A stretch of DNA of 64,000 nt from Patescibacteria group bacterium (lineage in GTDB: Bacteria; Patescibacteriota; Patescibacteriia; JAXHNJ01): NCBI GenBank assembly GCA_041649715.1, contig JBAZMP010000001.1, positions 309,287 through 373,286 of the forward strand, given 5' to 3'. Made by a program: the position numbers and the translations under genes. The notes beneath the pieces were generated by a model, which did not search any database, was not told the DNA's origin, and worked only from the letters and a program-made list of their open reading frames with translations. Shown piece by piece: positions 4,990 through 62,697 of the stretch. The first letter of the stretch is position 1. Every line of letters starts with the position of its first letter.

Positions 4990-5064
4990 ACTCATATTTA
5001 AGTCATTTTTACAATATCCATTGACCTAATTTATTTCAATTAATAATTATTAATTAAGAATATT

Positions 5065-13175: not shown

Positions 13176-14480
13176 TTGAGTAAACAAATGCCGTATATTT
13201 TGTTATCAGACATCAAGCAATATTTAGGCCAAGAGGTGCTTCTTAAAGGCTGGGTTTTTAACGCCCGGTCTTCCGGAAGCCTCTTTTTTTTACAGCTGCG
13301 GGACGGCTTGGGAGAGGTTCAGGGAGTAGTTTCCAAAAAAGAAGTCAGCCCGGAGGTTTTTGACGCCGCAAAGAAGCTTCAGATAGAATCTTCCGTGGAA
13401 GTCACCGGGATTTTGAAAGAAGAGGCTAAATCGCCCTCGGGTTTTGAAATTCAGGTTAAGGATTTGAAAGTCATTCAGATAGCCTCCGATTACCCGATCG
13501 CCAAAAAAGAGCACGGCCCGGATTTTCTGATGGATAACCGGCATTTGTGGCTTCGTTCTTCCCGCCAGCGGGCGATTTTAAAAATAAGGGATTCGGTTAT
13601 TTGGGCCGCCCGCAAATTTTTTAAAGACAATAATTTTACGCTGACGGATTCGCCGATCCTGACGCCGACCGCCTGCGAAGGGACGACCACGCTTTTTAAA
13701 ACCAAATATTTTGAGGAAGACGCTTATCTCGCGCAGTCCGGACAATTATACATTGAAGCGACGGCCGCCGCCCTGGGCCGGGTTTATGATTTCGGGCCTA
13801 CATTCCGGGCGGAAAAATCCAAGACCCGTCGTCACCTGATGGAATTCTGGATGCTGGACGCGGAAGCGGCTTTTGTGGAGCATGAGGAAAACTTAAAGAT
13901 CCAGGAAAATCTGATCAGTTCCATTGTTAAATATGTTTTGGAAAATAATAAAAAAGAGCTGGCAGTTTTGGAAAGAGACATAAAACCTTTGGAAAAAATT
14001 AAGCCGCCTTTTTACCGCAAGAAATATGAAGAGGTTATTAAGGATCTGCAAAGCAAGGGAAGCCCGATAAAATCCGGGGATGATTTCGGCGGAGACGAGG
14101 AAACCCTGATTTCCAAGGATCTGGACAAACCGGTTTTTGTCACGCATTGGCCGAAAAGTATAAAACCTTTTTACATGAAACAGGATCCCCGAAATCCCAA
14201 ATTAGTTTTGAATGCTGATTGCCTCGCCCCGGAAAGTTTTGGCGAGATCATCGGCGGTTCGCAAAGGGAAGATGATTATGAAACTTTGAAAGCCAACATG
14301 GAAAAAGCGAAAATTCCCATCAAGGATTACCAGTGGTATTTGGATTTGCGCCAATACGGCACTTTTCCGCACTCCGGTTTTGGCTTGGGAATTGAAAGAA
14401 CCGTGGCCTGGATCTGCGGATTAAAGCATATCCGCGAGACGATACCGTTTCCAAGAATGCTGAATAGACTTAGGCCATAG
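13176..14480 (+). CDS. asnS: Asparagine--tRNA ligase
   Basis: 434 aa. Class II motif 2 is FRAEKSKTRRHLMEFWMLDAE and motif 3 is GFGLGIERTVAWICGLKHIRETIPFPR. It has an N-terminal OB anticodon-binding domain and the size typical of AsnRS. A TTG start sits 5 nt after AGGAGG. Confidence 0.85.
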   Translation: MSKQMPYILLSDIKQYLGQEVLLKGWVFNARSSGSLFFLQLRDGLGEVQGVVSKKEVSPEVFDAAKKLQIESSVEVTGILKEEAKSPSGFEIQVKDLKVIQIASDYPIAKKEHGPDFLMDNRHLWLRSSRQRAILKIRDSVIWAARKFFKDNNFTLTDSPILTPTACEGTTTLFKTKYFEEDAYLAQSGQLYIEATAAALGRVYDFGPTFRAEKSKTRRHLMEFWMLDAEAAFVEHEENLKIQENLISSIVKYVLENNKKELAVLERDIKPLEKIKPPFYRKKYEEVIKDLQSKGSPIKSGDDFGGDEETLISKDLDKPVFVTHWPKSIKPFYMKQDPRNPKLVLNADCLAPESFGEIIGGSQREDDYETLKANMEKAKIPIKDYQWYLDLRQYGTFPHSGFGLGIERTVAWICGLKHIRETIPFPRMLNRLRP

Positions 14481-18659: not shown

Positions 18660-20039
18660 ATGGACCGCATTTTCACTTCGCAAACCTTAGACAAGGTCGA
18701 TAAAAAAATAAAGCTGGCCGGCTGGGTGCACCGGACGCGCCGGATGGGCTCGATCGTTTTTATTGACCTGCGCGACCGCGAAGGCCTGATCCAGGTGGTT
18801 TTTGACAAGCATTTTAAAGAAGCCCGGGAATTGCGGCCGGAATTTGTCATTGAGTTGGAGGGTAAAGTAGTCAAGCGCGAATTAAAAAATATCAATACGG
18901 ATTCGCCGACCGGCGAAATAGAGGTGCAGGCCACAAGCCTGAAAGTGCTGGCCAAAGCGAAGACTCCGCCTTTTGAAATTGAAAATGAAGAGCGGCAGGC
19001 CAGCGAGGAATTAAGGCTTAAATACCGCTATCTGGATCTGCGGCACGAAAGAATGAAAAAGAACCTGATCTTGCGCCACAAAGTGATCAAATTCATCCGC
19101 GACTGGCTTTCTACCTCCGGTTTTATGGAAATTGAAACGCCGCTTTTGACCAAGGGCACGCCGGAAGGGGCCAGAGAGTACATCGTCCCTTCCCGCAATT
19201 TTGCCGGCCAATTCTATGTCCTGCCGCAAAGCCCCCAGCAGTTCAAGCAATTGCTGATGGTGGCGGGCTTGGAAAAATATTTCCAGATCGCCAGATGCTT
19301 CCGCGATGAAGACGCCAGGGGAGACCGGCAGGCGGAATTTACCCAATTAGACTTGGAAATGTCCTTTGTCTCCCAGGAAGATATATTGAAGCTTTCCGAG
19401 GAATTGTTCATTCAGCTGGTCCAAAAAATCTGTCCGGAGAAAAAGATCGCCAAGATTCCTTTTCCGCGCTTAAGTTATGATGAGTCCATGAAAAAGTATA
19501 AAAGCGACAAGCCGGATCTGCGGAAGAATAAAAAAGACAATAACGAACTGGCTTTTGCCTGGGTTTTGAATCCTCCGCTTTTTGAAAAAAGCGTGACGGA
19601 AAAAAAGTGGGTTTCCACCCACCATCCTTTTACTATGCCGGTCGAGGATGATATTGAATTATTAGATAAAGAGCCAAAAAAAGTTAAAGCGCAATCCTAT
19701 GATATAGTTTTAAATGGTTTTGAAATCGGTACCGGGAGTGTCAGAATCCACGAGGCTTCCTTACAGTACAAAATATTCCAAATTTTGGGTCTGAACGAAA
19801 AAGAGATCCAGGAGCGCTTCGGCCATATGCTGGAGGCTTTTTCCTACGGCGTGCCGCCGCACGCGGGCATCGCCCCGGGTTTAGACAGGTTAGTCATGAT
19901 ATTGGCCGGCGAGCCGAATATCCGGGAAGTGATCGCTTTCCCCAAGACCGCCGATGCCCGAGATTTAATGATGGGAGCACCGTCGGAGTTACCTGAGAGT
20001 CAGGTTAAAGAGGCATATATTAAGAAACTGAAAAATTAA
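18660..20039 (+). CDS. aspS: Aspartate--tRNA ligase (short form lacking the bacterial GAD insertion)
   Basis: 459 aa. Motif 2 is FQIARCFRDEDARGDRQAEFTQLDLEMSF. The GSVRIHE motif is present. Motif 3 is PPHAGIAPGLDRLVMILAGEPNIREVIAFPKT. Confidence 0.85.
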   Translation: MDRIFTSQTLDKVDKKIKLAGWVHRTRRMGSIVFIDLRDREGLIQVVFDKHFKEARELRPEFVIELEGKVVKRELKNINTDSPTGEIEVQATSLKVLAKAKTPPFEIENEERQASEELRLKYRYLDLRHERMKKNLILRHKVIKFIRDWLSTSGFMEIETPLLTKGTPEGAREYIVPSRNFAGQFYVLPQSPQQFKQLLMVAGLEKYFQIARCFRDEDARGDRQAEFTQLDLEMSFVSQEDILKLSEELFIQLVQKICPEKKIAKIPFPRLSYDESMKKYKSDKPDLRKNKKDNNELAFAWVLNPPLFEKSVTEKKWVSTHHPFTMPVEDDIELLDKEPKKVKAQSYDIVLNGFEIGTGSVRIHEASLQYKIFQILGLNEKEIQERFGHMLEAFSYGVPPHAGIAPGLDRLVMILAGEPNIREVIAFPKTADARDLMMGAPSELPESQVKEAYIKKLKN

Positions 20040-29399: not shown

Positions 29400-30527
29400 A
29401 TGAAAATAGCGATTGTCACGCAAAGTTATTATCCGATCAAGGGAGGGGTGGCGGAGCATGTCCATGCTCTTTCCGGAGAGCTGGAAAAATTAGGGCATAA
29501 AGTCGTCATCATCACCGCCAATTTTACCGGTTTGGACGATAATTATGGACGTTGTGTCTATCGGATCGGCCGCGACTTGACGATTCCGATAAACGGCGCC
29601 TTCAACAACATGACGGTCGGTTTTTCCTTAAAAAAACAGTTGGAGGAAATTGAAAGCAAGGAAAAATTTGATCTTATCCATATCCATCAGCCGATTGACC
29701 CGATCCTGCCTTTAATGGCTTTGAAATATTTAAAAGCCCCCAAAGTCGGCACTTTCCATACCTACAGCGAGGGAAGCTATATTTTGGAGACTTTAAAGAA
29801 TCAGGCCAAGCCTTTTTTTGATCGTCTTTCCGGCTTGATCGCGGTCTCGTCTTCCGCGCGGGAATACATCACCCGGTATCTGCCCGGTGATTACCGGATA
29901 ATCCCCAACGGCGTGGACACCACCCGGTTTTCTCCCGAAGTGGAGCCCTTGGAAGGATATAAAAATAGCCGCGATTTCAAGATATTATTTGTGGGCAGAA
30001 TGGACCCCCGCAAGGGTTTTAAGTATTTGTTGAGGGCTTTCCCTCTGATCTATCAAAAGATCACCAATGTCCGCCTGATCGTGGTGGGCAATGGATTTTT
30101 GCGGACGTTTTACCATTTATCCCTGCCTTCCGTTCTGCGGCCCAGAGTGGATTACCGGGGTTTTGTTTCAAGGGCCGATCTGCCCCGGTATTATGCCTCC
30201 TGTGATGTTTACTGTTCGCCGGCCACCATGGGCGAAAGTTTCGGCATCGTTCTTTTGGAAGCGATGGCCTCGGGCAAGCCGGTCATCGCCTCGGATATCC
30301 GGGGTTATAATTCCATTCTGGAAGACGGCCGCCAGGGATATTTAGTGCCCAAAGAAAATCCCCTGGCTTTGGCGGAAAAAATCATTGATTTGGCCTGTGA
30401 CCAGAAAAAAAGAGAAATGATGGGGGCGGCTGGCCGGCAAAAAGCCCTGACCTTTGATTGGGGGAGGGTGGCGAAAGAGATTGAGGGACTATACCGGGAA
30501 GTTCTGGGGAAAAAGGGAAAGTCATAA
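29400..30527 (+). CDS. Family 4 glycosyltransferase (GT4)
   Basis: 375 aa. The N-terminus MKIAIVTQSYYPIKGGVAEHV..L.KLGH.V is typical, as is the C-terminal E(x7)E motif region ESFGIVLLEAMASGKPVIASD. Confidence 0.8.
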   Translation: MKIAIVTQSYYPIKGGVAEHVHALSGELEKLGHKVVIITANFTGLDDNYGRCVYRIGRDLTIPINGAFNNMTVGFSLKKQLEEIESKEKFDLIHIHQPIDPILPLMALKYLKAPKVGTFHTYSEGSYILETLKNQAKPFFDRLSGLIAVSSSAREYITRYLPGDYRIIPNGVDTTRFSPEVEPLEGYKNSRDFKILFVGRMDPRKGFKYLLRAFPLIYQKITNVRLIVVGNGFLRTFYHLSLPSVLRPRVDYRGFVSRADLPRYYASCDVYCSPATMGESFGIVLLEAMASGKPVIASDIRGYNSILEDGRQGYLVPKENPLALAEKIIDLACDQKKREMMGAAGRQKALTFDWGRVAKEIEGLYREVLGKKGKS

Positions 30528-30531
30528 AATT

Positions 30532-32424
30532 ATGGAGGAAGGGGTAAAAAATATAAAGAGAGCAAAAGGGGCTTTTCGTTTTTTTATCTTGGCCGGCCTA
30601 GTGATTGTTTTGCCGCTTTTTGTTTTTATTTTTATCAATCAGCCGCTAAAACCCACCCTGGTCGTGATCAAGGAGGAAAGCAGGTTGAAAGTTGATTCAC
30701 CGCTGGAGATCCAGTTTGACTGGCCGGTCGCCCGCCAAGTAAATATCACCATTGAACCGGCGGTAACGGGCGAGGTGGCTTATAAGAATATGATCATCGG
30801 CCAGCATTTTTCGCGGACCGTGGTTTTTACCCCGGAGCTTAACTTTTGGCCGGACACCACCTACCAAGTGAGGGTTTCAAATGTGAAATCCGTTTTGCCG
30901 AGCTTGTTGCCGGCCCGGGAATATGTCTATACTTTTACCACGGAAAGTGTGCCGAAAATCAAATCCCTGACCCCGGAAGTTGTTGGGGAAATAAGGGCAG
31001 ACCAAGAATTCAAAATAACCCTGGATAAAAAACCGGCCAACCTGGCAGAATACGAATATCGTTTTTTGCCGGCTGTTGATTATGACACTCTGTTAAGCGA
31101 AGAGGGAAAAACCGTCACTTTAAAGCCTAAAAGCTTGCTTTCCCAGGGCCAGACTTATCAGTTATCTGTTTGGCAGAAAAAAATCCGGAATTTTTATCAG
31201 AAAAATGAGGCGGGTTTCCGGGCCGAGCCGGAAAGTATTTGGACCGGCAATTTTGCCGTCCGGGAGGCTCCCTTTCTTTCGGGCTTTTCCCCGAAAGGAG
31301 AAAATGTCGGCTTAAACGCCGAGATCACCGCGGTTTTTAACGAGCCGGTGGAAACTGCTTCTTTCAAAGAGAGCCTTTCCATCACGCCGGCTTTATCAGG
31401 CGATTGGCGGACCGAAGATCAAAAAACCTTTGTTTTGAAAGAAGCGACACTCGCCAAAGACACCGACTATAAAGTTTTGATCCGCCGGGGCTTAAAGACT
31501 CTCAAGGGCGGATATTTCACCGAAGACGCCACGCATACTTTTAAAACGATCGGCCCGGTGGAAATCGCTCGTTTTTCTCCGGCTGATGGCGCCGCCGGCG
31601 TTTCCGTCAGTCATTCTTTTTCCGTCACTTTTAACCAGGCAGTGGATAAAACATCGGCCCAAAGTCATTTTTCCCTTGAGCCGGCGGCTGCCGGAGATTT
31701 TTTGTGGTCAGGGGAGACATTGACTTTTAAGCCAAAGGCTTCCTTAGCTTTTAATACGACCTATCATCTCACGATATCCAAGGGAGTGAAAAGCTTGTCG
31801 GGTTTTGATTCGGAAGAAGACTATAAAACAAACTTTACCACCGAGCTTTCCCTGACGAAATTGGCCGTTCCCTTCCACCGGCAGGAGCATAATTTAAGCT
31901 GCGAGACCGCCACCCTGGTCATGGCCTTGGCCTACCGAGGGGTGAGCGTTTCGGAGGCCGCGATTATAGATTATATCGGCTTTGACCCCACGCCGAAATC
32001 AGGGGGCGTCTGGGGTAATCCTAACGTCGCTTTTGTCGGCGACATTGACGGCCACCAGCCTTCGACCGGCTACGGAGTCTATTGGGATCCGATCACCAGA
32101 GCCGCCGATCAATACCGGAGCGCTTATGATTTTACCGGCTGGAATATCTCCGATTTGACCGCGGAGATCAAGAAAGGCAATCCGGTGATCGTCTGGGGCA
32201 CGGCCGGTTCCGGAGCCAGGATTGACTGGAAGACGCCCGCCGGCGGCAACGTGGTGGCCGTCAGCGGCGAGCACACCCGGGTGGTTGTCGGTTTTATCGG
32301 TTCGGCCGAAAATCCGAGCAAAATCATTACTTTAGACCCGCTTTCCGGGGAAAAGTATTTTACCTTGAGCAGTTTTCTTTGGAACTGGGGGCTTTTGGGC
32401 CGAAGCGGCGTGGTGGTCGAATAG
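30532..32424 (+). CDS. Membrane-anchored multidomain protein with a C-terminal YvpB/C39-like cysteine peptidase domain
   Basis: 630 aa. An N-terminal TM helix is followed by repeated beta-sandwich-like segments. The C-terminal domain LAVPFHRQEHNLSCETATLVMALAYRGVSVSE ... GEHTRVVVGF matches the Peptidase_C39_2 (YvpB) pattern VP...Q....CE..S..M. Confidence 0.6.
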   Translation: MEEGVKNIKRAKGAFRFFILAGLVIVLPLFVFIFINQPLKPTLVVIKEESRLKVDSPLEIQFDWPVARQVNITIEPAVTGEVAYKNMIIGQHFSRTVVFTPELNFWPDTTYQVRVSNVKSVLPSLLPAREYVYTFTTESVPKIKSLTPEVVGEIRADQEFKITLDKKPANLAEYEYRFLPAVDYDTLLSEEGKTVTLKPKSLLSQGQTYQLSVWQKKIRNFYQKNEAGFRAEPESIWTGNFAVREAPFLSGFSPKGENVGLNAEITAVFNEPVETASFKESLSITPALSGDWRTEDQKTFVLKEATLAKDTDYKVLIRRGLKTLKGGYFTEDATHTFKTIGPVEIARFSPADGAAGVSVSHSFSVTFNQAVDKTSAQSHFSLEPAAAGDFLWSGETLTFKPKASLAFNTTYHLTISKGVKSLSGFDSEEDYKTNFTTELSLTKLAVPFHRQEHNLSCETATLVMALAYRGVSVSEAAIIDYIGFDPTPKSGGVWGNPNVAFVGDIDGHQPSTGYGVYWDPITRAADQYRSAYDFTGWNISDLTAEIKKGNPVIVWGTAGSGARIDWKTPAGGNVVAVSGEHTRVVVGFIGSAENPSKIITLDPLSGEKYFTLSSFLWNWGLLGRSGVVVE

Positions 32425-41092: not shown

Positions 41093-41119
41093 TTAGCACT
41101 CTTGACCCGAGAGTGCTAA
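41093..41119 (+). promoter_or_regulatory. CIRCE operator (HrcA binding site), overlapping a TTGACC-18 bp-TATAAT promoter
   Basis: TTAGCACTC-ttgacccga-GAGTGCTAA is a perfect 9-N9-9 inverted repeat. The -10 TATAAT sits at 41126..41131, only 8 nt before the hrcA ATG, so the mRNA is possibly leaderless. Confidence 0.9.
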
Positions 41120-41139: not shown

Positions 41140-41847
41140 ATGGTTTTAGATGAGAGAAAAAGCGCTTTACTTAGCGCAATTATCAAGGAACACATAAAAA
41201 GCGGCTTGGCCGTTGGTTCTAAAATACTTGTGGATAAGTACGGTTTTCATCTGTCGCCGGCCACGATCCGCCATGAAATGACGGTTTTGGAAAAAAAAGG
41301 CTATATTTTTCAGCCTCATACATCCGCCGGCCGGATCCCAACGGAAGCTGGCTGGCAGTTTTATCTGAATAATTCCCTTAAAGATAAAAGCTTATCCGCC
41401 AAGGAAAAAGGCGATTTGGACGCCGTCTTTAAAACTTTTGAAGAGTCGGAACTCAAGGTAAAAAACTTAGCGAAAAAACTGGCGGAGATCAGCCGCGAAG
41501 CAGTGATTGTCGGTTTTAATCCTGACTACATTTATTATACCGGCCTTTCCCAGCTTTTTCGCCAGCCGGAATTTACCGAATATCATCTGATTTTCCATCT
41601 CTCGGAAGTTATCGATCATCTTGAGGAAGTGATAACCCGCTTGTTCAAAGAAGTGGCGGAAAATGATTTTAAAATTTTGGTGGGGCAGCAGAATCCGTTC
41701 GGTCCGGAGTGCGGAGCGATAGTTTCCAAATTCAAAAATAAAAAGGGAGAAGCGGGCATCTTCACGCTGTTGGGTCCGGCCAGGATGGCCTACGAGAACA
41801 ATCTGGCTCTCCTAAAATATTCTCATTCATTATTAAGCACTATTTAA
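41140..41847 (+). CDS. hrcA: Heat-inducible transcription repressor HrcA (short form)
   Basis: 235 aa. The N-terminal wHTH RKSALLSAIIKEHIKSGLAVGSKIL ... ATIRHEMTVLEKKGYIFQPHTSAGRIPTEAGWQ is HrcA-like. Confidence 0.8.
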   Translation: MVLDERKSALLSAIIKEHIKSGLAVGSKILVDKYGFHLSPATIRHEMTVLEKKGYIFQPHTSAGRIPTEAGWQFYLNNSLKDKSLSAKEKGDLDAVFKTFEESELKVKNLAKKLAEISREAVIVGFNPDYIYYTGLSQLFRQPEFTEYHLIFHLSEVIDHLEEVITRLFKEVAENDFKILVGQQNPFGPECGAIVSKFKNKKGEAGIFTLLGPARMAYENNLALLKYSHSLLSTI

Positions 41848-43483: not shown

Positions 43484-45394
43484 ATGTCAAAAATTCTAGG
43501 TATCGATTTAGGCACAACCAATTCCGCCATGGCGATTATTGAAGGCGGCGAGCCGAAAGTCTTGGAAAACTCCGAAGGCAACCGGACCACGCCGTCGGTC
43601 GTCGCCATTTCAAAAAAAGGCGAACGGATGGTCGGCCAGGTCGCCAAACGTCAGGCCGTGATTAACCCCACCAACACCCTTTATTCCCTGAAACGCTTGA
43701 TCGGCCGCCATTTTTCCGATGAAGAAGTGCAGAGAGATATAAAGGTTTTGCCTTTCAAAATCAAGCAGTCAGGCGAAGGCGTTAAAATAGAAATGGCGGG
43801 CAAGGATTACACCCCGCAGGAGATCTCCGCCATGGTTTTGGCGAAATTGAAAGCGGACGCAGAGAATAAATTAGGCGAGAAGATCACCGAAGCGGTCATT
43901 ACCGTGCCGGCTTATTTCGACGATTCGCAAAGACAGGCGACCAAAGACGCCGGCCGGATCGCCGGTTTTGAAGTCAAGAGAATCATCAATGAACCGACGG
44001 CCGCCGCCCTGGCCTATGGCTTTAATAAAAAGAAAGACGAGAAGATCGCGGTCTACGATCTGGGGGGCGGGACTTACGATATTTCCATTTTGGAAGTGTC
44101 GCAGGATACCGTGGAAGTGAAATCGACCAACGGCGACACCCATCTGGGCGGTGATGACTTCGACCAGAGGATCATCCAGTGGCTTGTTTCCGAGTTCAAA
44201 AAAGACCAAGGCATTGATTTATCCAATGATATCATGGCTTTGCAACGCCTGAAAGAAGCGGCGGAAAAAGCCAAGCATGAGCTTTCCACTGTGACCGAAA
44301 CGGAAATTAACCAGCCGTTCATCACCACCGACGCTTCAGGGCCCAAACATTTGCAGCTGAAAATGACCCGGGCCAAGCTGGAAAGTCTGGTCGGCGATCT
44401 GGTGGAAGCGACTAAGGCGCCCATGCAGAAAGCTTTGGATGACGCCGGTTTGAAAACTTCGGACATTAATGAAGTGATTTTAGTCGGCGGCATGACTCGT
44501 ATGCCCATGGTTCAAGCGACTGTCGAAAAATTCTTCGGCAAAAAGCCGAATATGACCGTTAACCCGGATGAAGTGGTGGCGGTCGGCGCCGCGGTGCAAG
44601 CCGGTGTGCTGCAAGGTGATGTCAAAGACATCTTGCTGCTTGATGTGACGCCTTTAACCTTAGGTTTGGAAACTTTGGGTAGCGTCATGACGCCATTAAT
44701 CAATCGTAATACAACCATTCCCACGGCCAAGACGCAGGTCTTTTCCACGGCCGCGGATAATCAGACCAGTGTGGAAATTCATGTTTTGCAGGGAGAAAGA
44801 CCGATGGCCGGAGACAACAAGACTTTAGGCAGATTCATGTTGTCTGGAATTCCGCCGGCGCCCCGCGGCATGCCGCAGATTGAAGTGACTTTTGACATTG
44901 ATGCTAACGGCATCTTGAATGTCAAAGCCAAAGACAAAGCCACGGGCAAGGAACAGGGGATCACTATTACCGCTTCCACGACATTGTCCAAAGACGAAGT
45001 GGAAAAGATGAAAAAAGAAGCGGAAATCCACGCGGCCGAAGACTTGAAGAAAAAAGAACTGGTGGATTTGCAAAACCAGGCCGAATCCCTAATCTTCATG
45101 TCCGAAAAAGCTTTGAAAGACGCGGGAGCCAAAGTGCCCGACAAAGATAAGAAAGAAATTGAAAGCAAGATTGAAGCCGTCAAAAAAGTCCAGAAATCCG
45201 AAAACAAAGATGAGATCAAGAAAGCCGTTGACGAATTGAACCAGGCCATTCAAAAGATCGGCCAGGCCATGTATGGTCAGCAAGGACCCCAGGCGGGAGC
45301 GCCAGGCGGTAAGGCCGGCCCGCAACCCGGTTCCCAAGAGCCAAAAGACGATAAAGGCCCGGTAGATGCGCAGTATGAAGAGGTAAAGAAATAA
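43484..45394 (+). CDS. dnaK: Chaperone DnaK (Hsp70)
   Basis: 636 aa. [18 protein letters not shown], the EKAK substrate-binding domain and an acidic C-terminal tail. Confidence 0.95.
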
Positions 45395-51758: not shown

Positions 51759-52892
51759 ATGGCTAAGGATTATTACAATCTGCTGGGTGTGGAAAAATCC
51801 GCTTCCGAAGAGGAAATCAAGCGGGCTTTTCGGCGCCTCGCCCACCAGCATCACCCGGACAAGAGCGGCGGTAATGAGGCTAAATTCAAAGAAATCAACG
51901 AGGCTTATCAGGTTTTGGGCAACAAGGAAAAACGGCAGCAGTATGATCAATACGGCACGACCTTTGATGACGCCGCCCGCGGCGGCGCCGGCGGCTGGCA
52001 GGATTTTTCTAGGGGGGCCGGCGGTTTTAATTGGTCGGATTTTTTCCGCCAAGGGCAGGCGGGCGGTACCCAGGAACAGGAGCAGGAATTTGATTTTGGA
52101 AATATCGGCGATATTTTTGGCGATATCTTTGGCTTTAGCGGCGGGAGGCAGACAAGAACCAGAAAAACCAAAGCTCGCGACATTACCGTGAGCCTAAACA
52201 TTGATTTCAAGGAGGCGGTTTTTGGGGCGGAAAAATTAATTGATCTTCATAAATCCGTAGCCTGTCCGCGTTGCGGCGGAACAGGAGCCGAGCCCGGCGC
52301 CAAAGTGGAAACCTGCCCGACCTGCCATGGTGCCGGCCAGGTACAAAGGATCCAAAATAGTTTTTTTGGCCAGATCCGCAGTTATGGCGTCTGCCCGGCC
52401 TGCCACGGACAGGGAAGTGTCATGAGCAAGAAATGCGCGGAGTGTAAAGGCAAGGGAACGATAAAAGATACGAAAAGAATAAAAGTAAAAATTCCCGCCG
52501 GCATTGACTCCGGTCAGACGATCCGGCTGACGGGGGAAGGGGAGGCGGCCGGTTTGGCCGGCCGTCCGGGCGATTTATTTCTTCAGGTTGAAGTAAATCC
52601 GGACTCATACTTTAGGCGGGAAGGGGAGGATATTTACACCGAAAAAGAAATCACGTTTTCCCAAGCCGCTTTAGGAGCGACCGCCGAAATTGAGACCGTG
52701 GATGGACCAGTTAAATTGAAAATTCCCGGCGGCACCCAGTCGGAAAAGTTATTTCGTTTAAAGGATAAAGGGGTGCCGCACTTGCAAGGCCGCGGGAGAG
52801 GGGATCATTACGTCAAGATTATTGTAAAAACGCCAACTCATATAAACCGGCGGGCCAGGGGATTACTAGAGGAGTTATCTGGCGAAGAATAA
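51759..52892 (+). CDS. dnaJ: Chaperone DnaJ
   Basis: 377 aa. J-domain DYYNLLGVEKSASEEEIKRAFRRLAHQHHPDK, a G/F-rich region and four CxxCxGxG zinc-finger repeats. Confidence 0.95.
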   Translation: MAKDYYNLLGVEKSASEEEIKRAFRRLAHQHHPDKSGGNEAKFKEINEAYQVLGNKEKRQQYDQYGTTFDDAARGGAGGWQDFSRGAGGFNWSDFFRQGQAGGTQEQEQEFDFGNIGDIFGDIFGFSGGRQTRTRKTKARDITVSLNIDFKEAVFGAEKLIDLHKSVACPRCGGTGAEPGAKVETCPTCHGAGQVQRIQNSFFGQIRSYGVCPACHGQGSVMSKKCAECKGKGTIKDTKRIKVKIPAGIDSGQTIRLTGEGEAAGLAGRPGDLFLQVEVNPDSYFRREGEDIYTEKEITFSQAALGATAEIETVDGPVKLKIPGGTQSEKLFRLKDKGVPHLQGRGRGDHYVKIIVKTPTHINRRARGLLEELSGEE

Positions 52893-55924: not shown

Positions 55925-55968
55925 CTAATCATTCTAGTTTAAAAATTTAGACAAAGCAAATCCCCCAT

Positions 55969-56193
55969 CTACGCGCCGTAAATGGGGGACTGGGTAATTA
56001 AAATTCTACTTACCCTTACGAAAGGACGATTAAATGCCCAACAGGGCAATGCAGAAAAGGCCTAGGCAGGAGACGATCGTGCTGGCCAGGGTAATACCGC
56101 CAGCGATTTCTCCCATGACATGTGTGTCTTTCTTGCCCTTGCCTTCAGGATTATTTCCCTCGGGTGGGATGGGCTTTGTTTGGTTTTTTTCCA
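55969..56193 (-). CDS. Possible small tail-anchored membrane protein, not in the ORF track
   Basis: Minus-strand translation gives MEKNQTKPIPPEGNNPEGKGKKDTHVMGEIAGGITLASTIVSCLGLFCIALLWAFNRPFVRVSRILITQSPIYGA (74 aa), in the gap between dus and the Clp-like gene. A weak Shine-Dalgarno sequence AAAGGAAAA is present. Support is low. Confidence 0.3.
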
Positions 56194-56260
56194 TTTTTGT
56201 TTTCCTTTTTGTTTTTGTTTTTCCGAAAAGTTATTTTTCGGATATATTATTTCGACCTTT

Positions 56261-57208
56261 TTATTTTTTTGTTTGAGGGAGTCGGAAACTGTCGTGCGCC
56301 CAGTCGTCAGTTACCGATTGAACGTCTTGTTCCGTAACTATCGCTTTTTGTTTTTCGTATTTTTGGGGATTCGTGATGCTATCCAGCCTTACCTTAGCGG
56401 CGGTTTCGTCCATCAGGTCAATCGCTTTATCCGGAAAAGTGCGACCGGAGAAGACGGAGGCGGAAAGATTGACGCAGGCGGCCAGCGCTTGATCAGAGAT
56501 TTTAACGGAATGATGGCGTTGGTAGCGGTGCCTTAATCCTTTCAATATTTCCAAAGTTTGCTGGGGGGATGGTTCATCGACAAACACCGGCTGAAATCTT
56601 CTTTCTAGTGTTCTGTCCTTAGCGATGGATTTTTCATAATCTTGCAGGGTAGTGGCCCCGATGGCCTGCAGCTCTCCGCGCGCCAAAGCCGGTTTTAAGA
56701 TATCAGCCGCGTCAATGGCTCCGGTGGCTTCGCCCGCTTCGGCTAATGAATGGAGTTCGTCAATAAAAATAATAATATTTCTTTTGGAAGCGATTATTTC
56801 GTCCACCACCATTTTTAATCTTTTTTCAAATTCGCCGCGGTACTTTGTGCCGGCGACCAGACCGGAAAGGTCAAGGGCGAGAAGCCTTTTATCTTTTAAG
56901 GGTTCGGGTACCTCGCCCCTTACGATCTCGTTAGCCAGTTCTTCAACAATCGCGGTTTTGCCCACGCCCGACTTGCCGATTAACACAGGATTATTTTTCG
57001 TCCGTCGGGTCAAAATCTGGATGACTCTTTGGATTTCGTGGCTGCGGCCGACCACTGGGTCAAGTTTACAGGCCCTGGCCAGGTCAGTTAAATCCTTGGA
57101 GTATAGGGCCAAAGTGTTGGTACGCGCCGTTACTTTTTGGCTGCGCTGGTAAAGGAATATGACAACCACGAGGCCGAGTAAACCGATGATATATATGTAG
57201 ATATTCAT
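56261..57208 (-). CDS. Membrane-anchored ClpB/ClpC-like AAA+ ATPase consisting of the D1 domain only
   Basis: 315 aa. An N-terminal TM helix ([18 protein letters not shown]) runs directly into [53 protein letters not shown] (Clp D1 Walker A), then FIDELH (Walker B) and a sensor region. There is no N-domain, M-domain or D2. Confidence 0.6.
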
Positions 57209-57214
57209 AATTTT

Positions 57215-57501
57215 TTATAGGCCGGTATTAAACTCCAGATCGTTATTTCCCGCGTTGGCATTCAGGGGATCTGTTTGATTAGTCGCGGCGTTATTATTCA
57301 GCTGCCTGTTAAGGTTTGATAAATTGGAGGGTTGATTGACATTTAAAGAGTCAGTTTTGGCGGAATTATTCATGATCAAGGTGTAGGCGCCGGCGAAAAC
57401 GATGACACCAACCGTGAGAAAGCAGGTGGCGAGCATAAAGCCCAAAGAAAGCCGGGTTTGAAGATTGGTTTTTGTCGCAATCTGAACTTCGCTTTTTTTC
57501 A
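57215..57501 (-). CDS. Small signal-anchored Asn-rich protein (start trimmed to MKKSEVQ)
   Basis: A TM anchor ending in GAYTLI is followed by NNSAKTDSLNVNQPSNLSNLNRQLNNN. It is tightly packed between the CorA-like and Clp-like genes. Confidence 0.4.
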
Positions 57502-57507
57502 TATCCT

Positions 57508-58434
57508 TTATAAAAACTTTTTTTTCTTGAAAAATTGCCAGCTGACCAAGGTGGCGAACAAGAGAACAACGAGAATAATCCAAAAGCCCCAGCGGAAATG
57601 GAGGAAGGGGGTGTCTTTAGCGTTAATGGCAAAAATGGAGGCGATCAAGGTGAGAATGAAAATAATCACCGAGATGCTGGTAAAGGTTTTCATGATGTCG
57701 TTCAAACGGTTTGAGATCAATGATTCATTCGTTTCGTGCAGCGCCTCGATTGATTCCTTGAAGCTTTCCAGATGATCCCAGATTTCCTTACTTAGTTCAA
57801 TCAGATCGTTATAATAAATCGACATTTTTTGGTTTCTGGAGAAGCCCGTGTCTTTTATGATTATACTGAGCTTTTTCAGGGTATTTTTATGAGCCTGCAT
57901 AATTTGACGGAAATCGGTGATATTGCGCCGAATGATTAGAATTTCAGAGACCATCTTTTTTTCCGAGCCGCTGAAAATCTCCCTTTCGATGCTCCTGATG
58001 TCGAGACTGACATGATCGAGCATCGGATAGCAGTAACAGAGGAGTTTGTCCAGGATCTGGTAAAGCAGGAAGACGGAGCCTTCGGACAATATTTCGTATT
58101 TGACTTTTTCCTCGGTCTGGCAGGATTGAAAAAGCCCTCTTAGGGGCGCTAAATTATTATTGTGGACAGTGACAAAATAATCTTCTCCGATAAAGAAATC
58201 TATTTCCGAGGGCTCGATTTCGCGCGTTTTTCGGTTATAAACCGGGAATAAGAGAACCAGAAAAATATATTTTGGATACTTTTCGATTTTTGGCCTTTGG
58301 CCGTAAATCAAACAATCCTCTAGATCAAGAGGATGGAAAGGGAAGTTATTCCTTAGGAAATCAATCTCGCCTTTTTCCGGATTGACAATATTAATCCAGC
58401 GTAAATTTTTCGTCCTAATTTCCGCTAAACTCAT
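57508..58434 (-). CDS. CorA-family divalent cation transporter-like protein with a non-canonical AIN in place of GMN
   Basis: 308 aa. The N-terminus is CorA-like (FPFHPLDLEDCLIYGQRPKIEKYPKYIFLVL). Two C-terminal TM helices carry FAINAKDTPF where YGMNF is expected. Confidence 0.55.
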   Translation of the reverse strand: MSLAEIRTKNLRWINIVNPEKGEIDFLRNNFPFHPLDLEDCLIYGQRPKIEKYPKYIFLVLLFPVYNRKTREIEPSEIDFFIGEDYFVTVHNNNLAPLRGLFQSCQTEEKVKYEILSEGSVFLLYQILDKLLCYCYPMLDHVSLDIRSIEREIFSGSEKKMVSEILIIRRNITDFRQIMQAHKNTLKKLSIIIKDTGFSRNQKMSIYYNDLIELSKEIWDHLESFKESIEALHETNESLISNRLNDIMKTFTSISVIIFILTLIASIFAINAKDTPFLHFRWGFWIILVVLLFATLVSWQFFKKKKFL

Positions 58435-58566
58435 GTGATTTTTTGTTTTTGTTTTATTTAACTTCTGCTTTTATTGTAGCACACTTTTCCTGTTTTGTAA
58501 AGGGTGTCGTCTTTAAGAAAAGTCCCCTTCGATTCTCTCAAAGGGGACATCTGCATCATGTGCATA

Positions 58567-59445
58567 TTACTTTTGGTCAAAGCCCGACGGGATTTTTACC
58601 GCGTCGACGCTTTTTCGCATCCCGGGGTTAGTCAGGAATATTTCCGGGATGAGATCGCGGCCGTCTCTGCCATAGAGCCGGCCGTTGCCGGTGACCACGA
58701 ACTCATAGCCTCCGGAATTTCTTCCGTTGACGTTTCCGCTCACGGAATACTGGCCCGGTAGAAAATCATAGGGGCACGCTCGGTTAGGCGGGACGATGAC
58801 TTCACGGGGGACGACGTCGTAAACCAACTTCGACTCATACCTCATTCCGTTGTCGTCTTCCCACTTGTTGACCACATTGCGCGGCGAACCATTTTTTTCC
58901 AGCCAGGAAAGCCGGATAGGGACACCCCACTTGTTGATGAAGGTAACCCGCGTCGCCTGATAGGTGAGTGGATGGGCGAACGAACGGTTCAGCCGTTCCG
59001 CGCCGTAGGGCGTGATATCCACGATTCGGGGCAGAAGAATATTTTCCATTCCGCGATTCGTGTCAAATGTCTTTCCTCCTCCGCCGGGGATTAGAAGAAA
59101 GCCGATCCGGGCGTTGTATTGCGTGTTTGCCGGCAGGTCCACTCTCACTTTTTTGCCCGGCCCAACTTCGATCCGGTACCAGGCCGTCCGGTACAAAAAA
59201 GGATTGGCTTGGTTCGGGTCAAAGTACCGCAGTACCCGGAATTCAAACTGGGCAAAAACGGGTTCTGTCGCCCAATTTTGGAATTCGACCGGGAACCAAG
59301 GTTCGGCGTACTGTTGCCGGATGTCTTGGGCCCTGGTTTCCGCCGAAACGGAATATACCGGCGTGGCCAACTGCTGGAATACGCTTCCGCAGCCCGCATT
59401 TGCGCTCATCAAAAGTATGATGAAAAGAACATGCGCCTTTTTCAT
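58567..59445 (-). CDS. Secreted lipoprotein of unknown function
   Basis: 292 aa. Signal and lipobox MKKAHVLFIILLMSANAGC, followed by a beta-rich domain. Confidence 0.55.
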   Translation of the reverse strand: MKKAHVLFIILLMSANAGCGSVFQQLATPVYSVSAETRAQDIRQQYAEPWFPVEFQNWATEPVFAQFEFRVLRYFDPNQANPFLYRTAWYRIEVGPGKKVRVDLPANTQYNARIGFLLIPGGGGKTFDTNRGMENILLPRIVDITPYGAERLNRSFAHPLTYQATRVTFINKWGVPIRLSWLEKNGSPRNVVNKWEDDNGMRYESKLVYDVVPREVIVPPNRACPYDFLPGQYSVSGNVNGRNSGGYEFVVTGNGRLYGRDGRDLIPEIFLTNPGMRKSVDAVKIPSGFDQK

Positions 59446-59572: not shown

Positions 59573-60115
59573 ATGGTCAATCTTTCGGTCGGACAAATTG
59601 AACAAGAAAAAAAAGAGCCTGTTTTGAAAGAACCGGCGAAAGATTTTGAAGTCAAAAAAGAGACGGAGGTTTTTCCGGAAAAATCGGTCGAAAGGGCCGT
59701 GGAAGTCCGAACTGAGAAGGAAGCCGCTAAAAAAGAAGAACAGCCGCCGGCGATAATAGAGAAAGAAGCGGCCGGCCAACCCTCATCATCCGTGGGGGTG
59801 ACGGCGCCTAAGGTCGCAAAGACCCCGGTCATAAGGGAAATTGAAGGGATTATGGAAGAAGATCTGGCTGAGATTTATAACCGCCTGGACGAAAAGCAAA
59901 AGATAGTTTTTAAGGTGGAGGGGGAGAAAACGGCGACGAAAATAGGGGAGCTGCTTCAATCGGTTAAGACAAAGGCCAGGCAGATTTTAGAGCTGATAAA
60001 GCGCTGGCTGAAGGTTATTCCTGGCTATAACAGGTTTTTTTTGGAGCAGGAAGCAAAAATAAAGACAGACAAAATTTTGCGCCTAAAAGACAAAGAACAA
60101 AAAGGGGGAGATTAA
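59573..60115 (+). CDS. Hypothetical Lys/Glu-rich protein
   Basis: 180 aa. Its stop lies 2 nt before the TTG start of the downstream ATPase, so the two genes are probably an operon. Confidence 0.45.
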   Translation: MVNLSVGQIEQEKKEPVLKEPAKDFEVKKETEVFPEKSVERAVEVRTEKEAAKKEEQPPAIIEKEAAGQPSSSVGVTAPKVAKTPVIREIEGIMEEDLAEIYNRLDEKQKIVFKVEGEKTATKIGELLQSVKTKARQILELIKRWLKVIPGYNRFFLEQEAKIKTDKILRLKDKEQKGGD

Positions 60116-60117
60116 GC

Positions 60118-62697
60118 TTGTTTCATCTTCTACAAACATTATTGATTTCGAACCAAACAGCTCTGCCGGCCTTGACTAATTTAGGGGGCAAGCAGGCCGG
60201 TTTTTGGCAAAATCCCATACTGGTGGCCGTTTTATATTTTATCGCGGTATTGTTATTTTTGGCGGCGCTCATGTTTTTGGTTCGATATCTTCTGACGCGG
60301 CGCCAGGCCAGACCGGCCTCTTTAAGAAAAATCATCCTTTTAGTGACGCTGCCCAAGGAAGTCGGGAGTAAAGAAAAGCAGCCGGAAAAACCACTCAGGG
60401 AACTTATTGATGAAGCGGAAGCGATGTTTTCTTCTTTGGGCGGTATGCGGGCGCAGCGAGGCTTGGAAGTTTTTTTTACCGGGCGCACTGATCATTTTTC
60501 TCTGGAGATCGCCGCCTATGACGGTTTGATCTCATTTTACGTGGTTGTCCCGGCTTTTTTGCGGACTTACACCGAAGAGCAGATTCATTCCCAGTATCCG
60601 AAAGCGAACATCGAAGAAGTTGAGGATTATAATATTTTTACACCGGAAAGCCAGATCGTGGCCACTTCCCTCCGATTCAAAAAATCCTATATTTTTCCCA
60701 TCAAGACCTACCGTTTGATGGATGTCGATCCCTTAAGCTCGTTGACTAACGTTTTGTCAAAGATCCCGAAAGGAGAAGGGGCGGTTATCCAGTATATTGT
60801 TCGTTCGGCTAAAGCCCAATGGCACGGCCGCGGGGCCGGCGTGGCAAAAAAAATGCACGAAGGCAAAAATTTGAAGGAGGCGCAGGGCGTTCACGGCGTA
60901 AACGCGATCTTTTCGAATTTCGCCAGCATTTTTTTTCCCAAGAAGAAAAAAGAAGAAATGGATTTGCGGCCTAATTTTCGGGTATCCCCGCGCGATGAGG
61001 AAATCGCCAAAAGTTTGGAAGAGAAGACTTCCCGGGCGGGCATGGATGTAAATATACGCCTTATCGTCTCGGCTAAAACGAAAGAACGGGCCCTCGCGCT
61101 GAACCGGGAGATTGTTAATGCTTTTAGCCAGTATAACCTATACGAATACGGTAACGGTTTAGTCAAACGAAACCTCTGGACGCCCTGGAGCCAAAATAAG
61201 TTAGTGATGAGTTATATCTACCGGATGTATAACGAGCGTCATAAATTAATACTTAATTCCGAAGAAATGGCCAGCTTATTTCATTTTCCTCTGGAAAGCA
61301 CCGAAACCCCGAACATCCGCTGGCTGCTCGCCCGCAAGGCGCCCGCGCCGGTTAATCTTCCGTCAGAAGGCATAATCCTGGGGCAAAATATTTTCCGCGG
61401 AGAAAAGAAGCTTGTCCGCCTTAAGCGGGATGACCGTCGCCGGCACGTCTACATGATCGGGATGACCGGCTCGGGTAAATCAGTTCTCATGCAGGAAATG
61501 GTCAAGCAGGATATTCGGAATGGGGACGGTGTCTGCGTGATCGATCCGCATGGCGGACTAGTCGAGGACATTCTGGCCTGTATTCCTAAAGAAAGGGCGG
61601 AAGATGTCGTGCTGTTTGAACCATCTGACGTGGAAAGACCGGTGGGTTTGAATATGCTGGAAGCGACCAGCCCGGAAGAAGCGGATTTTGCCGTTCAGGA
61701 AATGATCGCCATTTTTTACAAGCTTTTTCCGCCGGAGATGATCGGTCCTATGTTTGAGCATAATATGCGCAATGTGATGCTGACCCTAATGGCCGATAAA
61801 GAATATCCCGGCACGATCGCCGATATTCCCCGTATGTTCACCGACAAGGCCTACCAGGAGTACAAATTGAAAAAGGTCACGGATCCGGTCGTGCGGTCAT
61901 TCTGGGAAAAAGAGATGGCGAAAACGACGGATTTCCACAAATCAGAAATGCTGGGCTACTTAATTTCTAAAGTCGGCCGTTTTGTGGAGAACCAGATGAT
62001 GCGCAATATAATCGGTCAGCCGCACTCGGGTTTTAATTTTCGGGAGGTGATGGATAAGCAGAAGGTTTTACTCGTAAATCTCTCCAAAGGAAAAACGGGC
62101 GAAGTTAACAGCAATTTGCTCGGCTTAATCCTTGTTTCCAAACTGCAGATGGCCGCTTTAGCCCGGGCGGATATGCCCGAGAGCGAAAGAAAGGACTTTT
62201 ATCTTTATATCGACGAATTCCAGAATTTCATCACTCCATCCATCGCGACCATTCTGTCTGAGGCAAGGAAATACAAATTGAATTTGATCATGGCTCATCA
62301 ATATCTGGGTCAATTGACGCAGGGGCAAAATAATAATATTCGCGACGCGGTTTTGGGGAACGTCGGCACGCTTATCGCTTTCCGTATCGGCGTTGAAGAC
62401 GCAGAAATTATCGCCCGTCAGCTGGATCCCGTTTTTTCCGAATACGACGTGGTGAATATCGCTCGTTTTAACGCGTATATAAAACTTTTAATTGATAATG
62501 CCACGGCTAAGGCTTTTAATATTGCTACTTTTCCTCCCACTATCGGCAATCCTTTAATTAGCAAAAAAATCAGGGAACTTTCTCGTTTGAAATATGGACG
62601 ATCAAGAATACAGGTTGAGGCAGAATTGATGGAGCGGACAAAATTGGGCGAAGTGATAAAAACACCGTTCCCGAGTTCAGGCGAGAAGAATATTTAG
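60118..62697 (+). CDS. VirB4/TrbE-like (AAA_10/DUF87 superfamily) P-loop ATPase, membrane-anchored
   Basis: 859 aa. A TTG start sits after AAAGGGGGAG. The N-terminus has a TM helix. Walker A is GMTGSGKS, Walker B is LYIDEFQNF, and the conserved EARKYKLNLIMAHQYLGQL motif is as in the VirB4/TraG families. Confidence 0.55.
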   Translation: MFHLLQTLLISNQTALPALTNLGGKQAGFWQNPILVAVLYFIAVLLFLAALMFLVRYLLTRRQARPASLRKIILLVTLPKEVGSKEKQPEKPLRELIDEAEAMFSSLGGMRAQRGLEVFFTGRTDHFSLEIAAYDGLISFYVVVPAFLRTYTEEQIHSQYPKANIEEVEDYNIFTPESQIVATSLRFKKSYIFPIKTYRLMDVDPLSSLTNVLSKIPKGEGAVIQYIVRSAKAQWHGRGAGVAKKMHEGKNLKEAQGVHGVNAIFSNFASIFFPKKKKEEMDLRPNFRVSPRDEEIAKSLEEKTSRAGMDVNIRLIVSAKTKERALALNREIVNAFSQYNLYEYGNGLVKRNLWTPWSQNKLVMSYIYRMYNERHKLILNSEEMASLFHFPLESTETPNIRWLLARKAPAPVNLPSEGIILGQNIFRGEKKLVRLKRDDRRRHVYMIGMTGSGKSVLMQEMVKQDIRNGDGVCVIDPHGGLVEDILACIPKERAEDVVLFEPSDVERPVGLNMLEATSPEEADFAVQEMIAIFYKLFPPEMIGPMFEHNMRNVMLTLMADKEYPGTIADIPRMFTDKAYQEYKLKKVTDPVVRSFWEKEMAKTTDFHKSEMLGYLISKVGRFVENQMMRNIIGQPHSGFNFREVMDKQKVLLVNLSKGKTGEVNSNLLGLILVSKLQMAALARADMPESERKDFYLYIDEFQNFITPSIATILSEARKYKLNLIMAHQYLGQLTQGQNNNIRDAVLGNVGTLIAFRIGVEDAEIIARQLDPVFSEYDVVNIARFNAYIKLLIDNATAKAFNIATFPPTIGNPLISKKIRELSRLKYGRSRIQVEAELMERTKLGEVIKTPFPSSGEKNI

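Follow-up and report, generated by a model that had tools for sequence, protein, structure and literature searches.

We analysed a stretch of 64,000 nucleotides (nt; hereafter the 64-kb window) from a Patescibacteria group bacterium (contig JBAZMP010000001.1, positions 309,287 to 373,286) and describe here a minus-strand cluster of four genes, encoding a CorA-like protein, a small membrane protein of 95 amino acids (aa), a ClpC-type AAA+ ATPase and a 54-aa tail-anchored protein. Judged from sequence, this group of tiny-celled bacteria carries a conserved and uncharacterised membrane-anchored ATPase built on the D1 domain of ClpC, usually encoded beside a CorA-like protein whose selectivity filter has decayed. 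In the order of the minus strand, the genes are:

57508..58434, minus strand: CorA-like gene (308 aa; Pfam CorA, E=1e-53)
57215..57502 from its ATG, minus strand: small single-pass membrane protein (95 aa; no Pfam match)
56261..57208, minus strand: membrane-anchored, D1-only ClpC-type AAA+ ATPase (315 aa; Pfam AAA and AAA_lid_9)
56030..56194, minus strand: open reading frame (ORF) for a tail-anchored protein (54 aa; C-terminal transmembrane (TM) helix; 66 nt 3' of the ATPase gene)

The first three ORFs had been reported in an initial annotation of this DNA, and both the ORF listing and direct reading place all three at the coordinates given there, while Pfam and alignments against the structure database agree with its identification of a CorA homolog and a Clp D1 ATPase. 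The 6-nt spacing that it gave for both junctions holds between the 95-aa gene and the ATPase gene, but the gap from the CorA stop to the ATG of the 95-aa gene is 5 nt (AGGAT), and its operon of three genes overlooked the 54-aa ORF as a fourth. Consensus scans for transcription signals returned three sites around the cluster:

58522..58548, minus strand: terminator-like hairpin (11-bp stem with 6 GC pairs, then a T-run)
58473..58501, minus strand: promoter-like site (TTTACA-17-TACAAT with a TG extension; 39 nt 5' of the CorA-like start)
55959..55991, minus strand: terminator-like hairpin (15-bp stem; between the 54-aa ORF and dus)

The promoter-like site is a consensus match only (10/12 positions). 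At 58522..58548 the hairpin ends the lipoprotein gene upstream and delimits the CorA/ATPase unit at its 5' end. Because promoter-like and terminator-like signals bound both ends, the CorA-like, 95-aa, ATPase and 54-aa genes likely form one transcription unit, the guanine-plus-cytosine (GC) content of which equals that of the surrounding genome. A palindromic hairpin (TCCGAAAAGTTATTTTTCGGA) without a minus-strand T-run is also found between the ATPase stop and the 54-aa ORF (56222-56242), and could act as an mRNA processing or attenuation element inside the operon.

Domain content and conservation of the ATPase

A search of solved structures aligned residues 27-286 of the ATPase to residues 157-415 of Bacillus subtilis ClpC (E=2e-95), a span that runs from the linker after the N-domain up to the start of the M-domain. 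A homolog search over 5.8 billion proteins returned at least 120 homologs, the best 120 of which were analysed; they measure 303-367 aa and are 60-82% identical to the window protein. The main elements of the ATPase, with their occurrence among these homologs, are:

57143..57202, minus strand: N-terminal TM anchor, residues ~3-22 (AlphaFold2 helix and homolog hydrophobicity)
56954..56977, minus strand: Walker A GKSGVGKT, residues 78-85 (present in 120/120 homologs)
56825..56845, minus strand: D1 pore-1 loop KYRGEFE, residues 122-128 (in 119/120 homologs; invariant in the alignment)
56750..56767, minus strand: Walker B FIDELH, residues 148-153 (in 119/120 homologs)

The ATPase has all the elements of a D1 module, with Walker A and B motifs, a Tyr pore loop, an Arg finger and the AAA_lid_9 small domain. 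Its AlphaFold2 model (predicted local distance difference test score 83.6) has residues 3-27 as a helix and a linker of low confidence over residues 26-29, after which the alpha/beta and lid subdomains follow; no coiled-coil is visible. A second Walker A is absent from the protein and from all homologs (0/120), Clp_N gives no Pfam match in it and the alignment begins only at ClpC residue 157. At the other end the alignment stops at ClpC residue 415 without an M-domain, and the ~30 remaining residues match the end of the D1 small domain, the last element of which we take, from the alignment and from what we know of ClpC and ClpB sequences, to be the C-terminal 'VTxxDVxxVxxEW'. With no D2 in the ATPase, the (I/L)GF loop for ClpP docking is missing, and Peptidase_M41 has no Pfam match in a protein that stops after the AAA lid. 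NCBIfam holds no curated family dedicated to this ATPase, only models for full-length ClpB, ClpA and ClpV, which match with their D1 part (positions ~147-434) at 331-394 bits, compared to cutoffs of 885-1232. The architecture put forward in the initial annotation, a TM helix joined to D1 without N-, middle or D2 domain, is thus borne out by Pfam, the ClpC alignment and the AlphaFold2 model: the protein is one complete AAA+ module (large domain and lid) from which the M-domain has been cleanly excised, with a TM helix in place of the N-domain and with D2 and its ClpP-docking loop gone. Since D2 is absent, no docking to ClpP is expected, and since the M- and N-domains are absent, the known regulators of ClpC and ClpB (MecA, DnaK) could not act in their known way.

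Such a reduced protein might, instead of being an autonomous threading motor, join a second membrane AAA+ machine (FtsH, for example) as a subunit or adaptor, or pair with a D2-type ring encoded elsewhere to make up a split ClpC, and deliver membrane substrates to a protease. A D1 on its own, deprived of the ClpP-docking loop and of the main D2 motor, would fit such a role; ClpC D1 and FtsH are both members of the classic AAA clade, and heteromeric FtsH/FtsHi/Ycf2 motors are reportedly a precedent for mixed membrane AAA rings. Against this stands that neither a D2-like nor an FtsH gene was seen among the scanned ORFs of the window or the called genes of the related loci inspected, and that conservation of the Arg finger and the inter-subunit motifs is complete, which is what a homo-oligomeric ring would require; we regard this explanation as decidedly unlikely. 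Pfam scans of 30 larger ORFs of the window (not all of its ORFs) also detected no ClpP, ClpX, FtsH, Lon or full-length ClpB.

Conservation extends from the motifs to the anchor and its flanks. A hydrophobic N-terminal stretch of 19 aa occurs in 115/120 homologs, sensor-1 in 119/120 and the Arg-finger motif in 116/120, with RRFQP within 116-120. Ahead of the TM segment the mean count of Lys plus Arg is 0.18, against 3.1 over the 12 aa that follow, and this asymmetry over the 120 homologs predicts an N-out topology with the ATPase inside. The organism-named homologs, about a dozen, are all from Patescibacteria or Kerfeldbacteria, and no other phylum is named. For the codon comparisons of window genes we used locus L094, the closest relative for which DNA was available: the proportions of nonsynonymous (pN) and synonymous (pS) differences in the ATPase gene are 0.119 and 0.733 (dN/dS ~0.05), relative to a dN/dS of 0.12 for the housekeeping gene dus. 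Taken together, these comparisons indicate a real and length-conserved family that is under strong purifying selection and keeps every ATPase and threading motif.

The possibility that the gene is a fragment of clpB or clpC, which would have undone the earlier interpretation, or that the cluster is a mobile or defence island, deserves mention as annotation pipelines name this family ClpC or ClpA and PADLOC returns weak, generic AAA and CorA matches. A truncated pseudogene is ruled out by the conserved length and TM anchor (at least 115/120 homologs), by the dN/dS of ~0.05 and by the lack of Clp remnants: when a full-length Hsp100 from the Candidate Phyla Radiation (CPR; 907 aa, L016) was used as tblastn query, its sole match was at 57115-56345, through query residues 248-506, and no remnant of an N-, M- or D2-domain was found in the 64-kb window. 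Likewise, an island is at odds with a GC content that matches the genome, with stable synteny with cysS, dus and dnaJ and with the lack of any PADLOC family above the generic level, which makes this explanation scarcely credible. A defence system was rejected on the same matches, a CorA-like one over the TM region (1.4e-6) and IetA/TRIP13 AAA ones (1e-4 to 6e-6).

A HMMER search of 1.84 billion cluster representatives for divergent proteins of the same layout uncovered P0249 (310 aa, 54% identity), P0254 (315 aa, from Buchananbacteria) and P0297 (328 aa, 48% identity), as well as P0251 (374 aa; L093 5001-6125), a TM-D1-only protein with a coiled-coil insert of ~55 aa at the position of the ClpC M-domain, whose gene sits between cdaA-ybbR and the RNase Y gene. 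By its sequence, P0251 seems to stand midway between ClpC and the 315-aa form. When the D1 cores were compared in a neighbour-joining tree, the TM-D1-only sequences all grouped in a clade of their own (bootstrap 9/30), which suggests, without establishing it, a single origin of these subfamilies. Other CPR lineages (Andersenbacteria, Saccharibacteria and Giovannonibacteria) have ordinary Hsp100 proteins of 888-907 aa. As D1 is ~60% identical across phyla, full-length ClpC (from Firmicutes and gut metagenomes) dominated the scans of genome and metagenome contigs, which yielded seven further D1-only loci. In full-text literature searches, neither a D1-only Clp protein with a TM anchor nor a pairing of CorA with Clp was found described.

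The CorA-like protein and the small membrane proteins

The CorA-like protein covers positions 3-292 of the 292 in the Pfam CorA profile and aligns end to end with Thermotoga maritima CorA (PDB 3jcf, E=1.6e-32), and it has the CorA fold, a cytoplasmic alpha/beta funnel domain followed by two C-terminal TM helices. Its score against TIGR00383 (181 bits) lies below the equivalog cutoff of 200.75. The window segment 'IASIFAINAKDTPFLHFRWGF' overlies the filter region of the T. maritima protein and puts AIN exactly over GMN, as had been read from the letters alone:

57622..57630, minus strand: AIN tripeptide (GCC ATT AAC) at the GMN selectivity position (alignment to PDB 3jcf)

The Gly of the G-x-N signature is thus replaced by Ala, and the Asn is kept. 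Among the 120 closest CorA homologs (of which the two dozen or so with an organism name are almost all Patescibacteria), GMN is found in 51, AIN in two and 31 other tripeptides in the rest, so that the 69 non-GMN proteins show 32 tripeptides, including GIG, AVR, SIN, SIG, GVN and GLM. Position 1 of these filters is small and position 2 hydrophobic, and in many of them the Asn has become G, R, K, E, D or Q. The TM1 proline is conserved in 98% of the GMN group versus 28% of the non-GMN group, which has also lost the Met of the MPEL loop; conservation persists in the cytoplasmic HPLxLED...QRP segment, in the stalk and in the F-W behind the loop. A neighbour-joining tree puts the window protein in one large non-GMN clade, with further losses scattered elsewhere, and parsimony on this tree requires at least 11 changes at GMN.

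Compared to its L094 counterpart (motif SIG), the window gene has a pN of 0.129 and a saturated pS of 0.768, values similar to those of dus, indicating that purifying selection maintains the protein while its filter decays. GxN is the signature of the 2-TM-GxN family (PMC6972854), and because it is lost, most members of this CorA family are probably no longer classical Mg2+ channels; the window AIN keeps the Asn, and some cation conduction could still be possible. The altered selectivity or gating proposed in the initial annotation therefore stands as regards the substitution itself, which is real, but AIN is one of 33 drifting tripeptides and specifies no particular new selectivity motif.

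The two small proteins of the cluster are single-pass membrane proteins. The 95-aa protein has a Thr/Lys-rich N-tail of ~17 aa, one TM helix and a variable C-tail rich in Asn, in keeping with its first description as a tiny anchored Asn-rich protein. Compared with L094 (44% identity, dN/dS 0.17), the N-tail and TM core (SLGFMLAT...FAG.YTLI) are conserved but the Asn-rich C-tail is not. Counterparts of 46-95 aa occupy this position in 14/18 loci of the subclade, and the family is characterised by an N-tail of ~17-25 aa, rich in Thr, Lys and Gln and often of alternating pattern, and by a single TM helix after it. This small upstream TM protein is kept in all three CorA-less loci examined (L003, L095 and L127), and it persists beside the ATPase more than CorA does.

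The 54-aa protein has a cytoplasmic N-terminal part of ~30 aa and a C-terminal TM helix, and is 57% identical to its L094 counterpart (dN/dS 0.31). Homologous tail-anchored ORFs lie 3' of the ATPase gene in L003, L006, L088 and L094, which makes five loci with the window, and share the motif E(I/V)AGG.(T)L(A/G)(S/A)(T/A)(I/V). In this small sample, CorA is degenerate, truncated or missing at every locus seen to have such an ORF. At two loci (L087 6006-6470 and L095 3943-4404) the 54-aa ORF is replaced after the ATPase gene by one for a protein of ~153 aa with an N-terminal TM helix; the two proteins are alike by eye and have no Pfam match. At L092, 16 nt separate a distant TM-D1-only gene from the gene after it, which encodes a 369-aa single-pass protein. 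Single-pass membrane proteins thus tend to be encoded directly downstream of TM-D1-only genes.

Gene order in relatives and the rest of the window

The reading that we favour, tentatively and with confidence a little short of even, is that the ATPase acts as a protease-independent, membrane-proximal unfoldase similar to FtsH or Msp1, with co-encoded proteins as its likeliest partners or clients. We sampled 14 loci from the ATPase side (the window, L001, L003, L005, L006, L085-L088, L095, L096, L127, L130 and L133), a modest and phylogenetically clustered sample in which an intact CorA gene lies directly upstream on the same strand in nine (the window, L001, L005, L086, L087, L088, L096, L130 and L133). 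From the CorA side (L089-L091) the ATPase gene was directly downstream in 3/3 loci, two of which encode a canonical GMN. L094 repeats the full order of lipoprotein, CorA, 88-aa ORF, ATPase, 52-aa ORF and dus. Comparison of the two top-120 homolog lists gave 21 ATPase/CorA pairs whose longest contigs are of identical size, with adjacency forced in six of the 21 because their contigs span only 2.2-3.9 kb. Conservation of the gene order in relatives, on which the earlier interpretation had been made to depend, was therefore found.

Several observations weigh against a functional module of this kind. CorA is truncated to 243 aa beside the ATPase gene in L006 and is missing in L003, in L085 and in the closely related L095 and L127, and the distant P0249 and P0251 adjoin DnaE or CdaA/YbbR/RNase Y genes with no CorA nearby; given these five losses or truncations in 14 loci and its absence near the distant genes, CorA cannot be an obligate partner of the ATPase. 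The ATPase gene overlaps or abuts cysS just as tightly in L089 and L090, and as these genomes are compact, short gaps alone are weak evidence of a functional link. Moreover, the whole neighbourhood is syntenic (VirD4-like, lipoprotein, CorA, D1, CysS, Dus, DnaJ), so that part of the co-occurrence of CorA and ATPase may reflect inherited gene order within one lineage. As regards the motor, D2 is the main motor of ClpA and ClpB and D1 the weaker one, and that an isolated D1 ring would hexamerise and thread is predicted from sequence; we argue for a threading homo-oligomer because the pore loops and Arg fingers are intact.

These same losses, distant subfamilies, tight cysS junctions and synteny favour a simpler explanation, namely that the genes are neighbours by synteny and packing without any coupling, the ATPase being a stand-alone, membrane-tethered, minimised Hsp100 chaperone and CorA an independent channel with relaxed or shifted selectivity. 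AIN, with its Asn and small first residue, is near the GVN and GIN of ZntB-type members (PMC6972854), which also suits an independent channel. On the other hand, in L086 and L087 the CorA-ATPase pair is intact although both flanks have changed, the ATPase was found in every CorA-side sample, small TM proteins are interleaved between CorA and ATPase, and at least 11 independent changes of the near-universal GMN, together with the loss of the TM1 Pro under purifying selection, suggest a changed role. We consider the absence of coupling quite possible, though short of probable. The CorA link is real and conserved in the subclade of the window and is not obligatory for the ATPase; of the coupling of the ATPase to an ion-channel-like protein that the initial annotation had proposed, the conserved gene pairing holds, but coupling itself is not established by an arrangement in which CorA is lost or truncated in 5/14 loci.

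The slot upstream of the cluster is held in the window by a gene that is probably transcribed separately:

58567..59445, minus strand: lipoprotein gene (lipobox ...NAGC; position-conserved; 33% identity to its L094 counterpart, dN/dS 0.43)

In every related locus, the gene directly upstream of the CorA/ATPase cluster encodes a lipobox protein (L001 4370-4918, L085 4010-4801, L086 3404-3913, L088 2899-3696, L089 2949-3521, L090 3013-3552, L091 3291-3860 and L094 24-1016), with a tandem pair of them in L095 and L127. By BLAST these proteins are not similar to one another, only those of the window and L094 being alignable, and the slot therefore appears to be that of a position-conserved but fast-evolving surface lipoprotein. 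Divergent from the lipoprotein/CorA cluster lie a gene for a conserved protein of ~175-180 aa without Pfam match (59573-60115, plus strand) and, after it, one for a VirD4/TraG-like type IV coupling protein of 859 aa (60118-62697, plus strand), listed with DUF8128 in relatives; the pair recurs in L001, L085, L086, L088, L089, L090 and L091.

Elsewhere in the window, a perfect CIRCE (controlling inverted repeat of chaperone expression; TTAGCACTC-N9-GAGTGCTAA), none being expected by chance, lies at 41093-41119 (plus strand) just 5' of hrcA (41140-41847), which is followed by dnaK (43484-45394) and dnaJ (51759-52892). Membership of the CorA/ATPase operon in the HrcA heat-shock regulon was rejected, as this is the sole CIRCE of the window and none lies near the operon. 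An island of low GC content (1214-5985, plus strand; 0.27-0.29 versus ~0.45 elsewhere) encodes a 790-aa N6 DNA methylase/Eco57I-like restriction-modification protein along with ORFs of 470 and 306 aa without Pfam match, and was probably acquired horizontally. Two paralogous class II (Asp/Lys/Asn-type) aminoacyl-tRNA synthetases, each with an OB anticodon-binding domain, are encoded within 6 kb (13176-14480 and 18660-20039, both plus strand), and a 656-aa protein with two bacterial Ig-like (Big_5) domains and a C-terminal Peptidase_C39-like domain at 30454-32424 (plus strand).

A candidate membrane module and its relation to known systems

As a working model for the favoured unfoldase, the four genes would form a membrane module specific to Patescibacteria, whose core is a ClpC-derived ATPase reduced to one D1 and acting as a hexameric, protease-independent unfoldase or extractase next to the membrane. 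The ring would exert its pull on membrane proteins through their short cytoplasmic tails; as clients or partners, the 95-aa protein, the 54-aa tail-anchored protein and the CorA-family pentamer are the likeliest. The 95-aa protein may be an N-in single-pass partner that offers a beta-strand-like Thr/Lys tail of ~20 aa; the co-encoded small proteins could be clients of the ATPase or its adaptors, and a partner or client role confined to this lineage could fall to the CorA-like pentamer. For the CorA-like protein itself, possible roles are those of scaffold, sensor or channel of other specificity, with its assembly or turnover under ATPase control. Geometry constrains this arrangement. As only ~10-15 residues link the TM helix to the AAA module, any ring would sit directly beneath the membrane, while the CorA funnel projects roughly 70-100 Å into the cytoplasm in solved structures. 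A coaxial AAA ring capping the funnel is thereby ruled out, and since the ring cannot cap it, contact between ATPase and CorA, if any, would have to come from the side, in or at the membrane.

Textbook Hsp100 unfoldases have two rings, and the question of what a lone D1 motor can do is normally put to engineered truncations. A natural Hsp100 that is D1-only, M-domain-less, membrane-anchored and under strong selection across a whole Patescibacteria lineage provides a minimal system for D1 mechanics. It suggests that membrane-protein quality control may operate in tiny CPR genomes without fusion to a dedicated peptidase. Similarly, a CorA clade that has repeatedly abandoned the supposedly indispensable GMN and is yet conserved amounts to a natural experiment on other uses of this scaffold. 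The labels 'ClpC' and 'magnesium transporter' that pipelines attach to these proteins are both probably misleading; neither family has a dedicated model or literature in NCBIfam, PADLOC or full-text searches.

Of known systems, the D1 of ClpC and ClpB is the closest relative of the ATPase: residues 27-286 are ~60% identical to the D1 of B. subtilis and Staphylococcus aureus ClpC, with the same Walker A and B motifs, KYRGEFE pore loop, Arg finger, sensor and AAA_lid_9. The ATPase differs in lacking Clp_N, the M-domain, D2 and the ClpP loop, in its membrane anchor and in its size (~315 versus 810-870 aa). It is thus homologous to this D1 while lacking four defining features of Hsp100 proteins, D2, the N-domain, the M-domain and ClpP docking.

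The CorA-like protein matches CorA/ZntB proteins in its full-length alignment to T. maritima CorA, its funnel domain, stalk helix and two C-terminal TM helices and its basic KKKK(F/W)L C-terminus. It departs from them in having AIN for GMN and in falling below the TIGR00383 equivalog cutoff, and its family does so in that many members are without the essential Asn and that the non-GMN group has lost the TM1 Pro and the MPEL Met.

With FtsH the ATPase shares a membrane-tethered AAA ring near the bilayer and a genetic association with a Mg2+-transporter family and small hydrophobic proteins; small membrane peptides (MgtR and MgtS) steer FtsH toward MgtC and MgtA. AAA+ control of a Mg2+ transporter is further exemplified by the FtsH-dependent degradation of MgtE that is licensed by YqgP (PMC7231995). 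Unlike FtsH, the ATPase has no M41 peptidase, a single TM helix, no periplasmic domain and an AAA module of Clp D1 type, and its relation to CorA comes from gene order only.

Msp1 is a eukaryotic, TM-anchored, single-ring AAA extractase (PMC7018516), and Msp1/ATAD1 and the ATPase have in common an N-terminal TM anchor and a single cytosolic classic-clade AAA ring without peptidase, with a gene for a tail-anchored protein adjacent to that of the ATPase. Carried further, the analogy would make the ATPase the Msp1/ATAD1 of bacteria, a peptidase-free homo-hexamer that consists of the ClpC D1 ring alone and extracts both small proteins from the membrane, with the CorA pentamer, its filter decayed and its cytoplasmic domain conserved, repurposed as a non-conducting sensor or scaffold whose assembly is set by the motor; so specific a version strikes us as unlikely. 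Were it true, the ATPase would count as the first single-ring D1 Hsp100 motor found in nature, and membrane proteostasis in ultra-small bacteria would have a new route. The ATPase is bacterial, and its AAA module, a Clp D1, is not of the meiotic clade; homology is limited to the AAA fold, and the analogy is drawn from architecture alone. The ATPase thus resembles Msp1 and FtsH in topology only.

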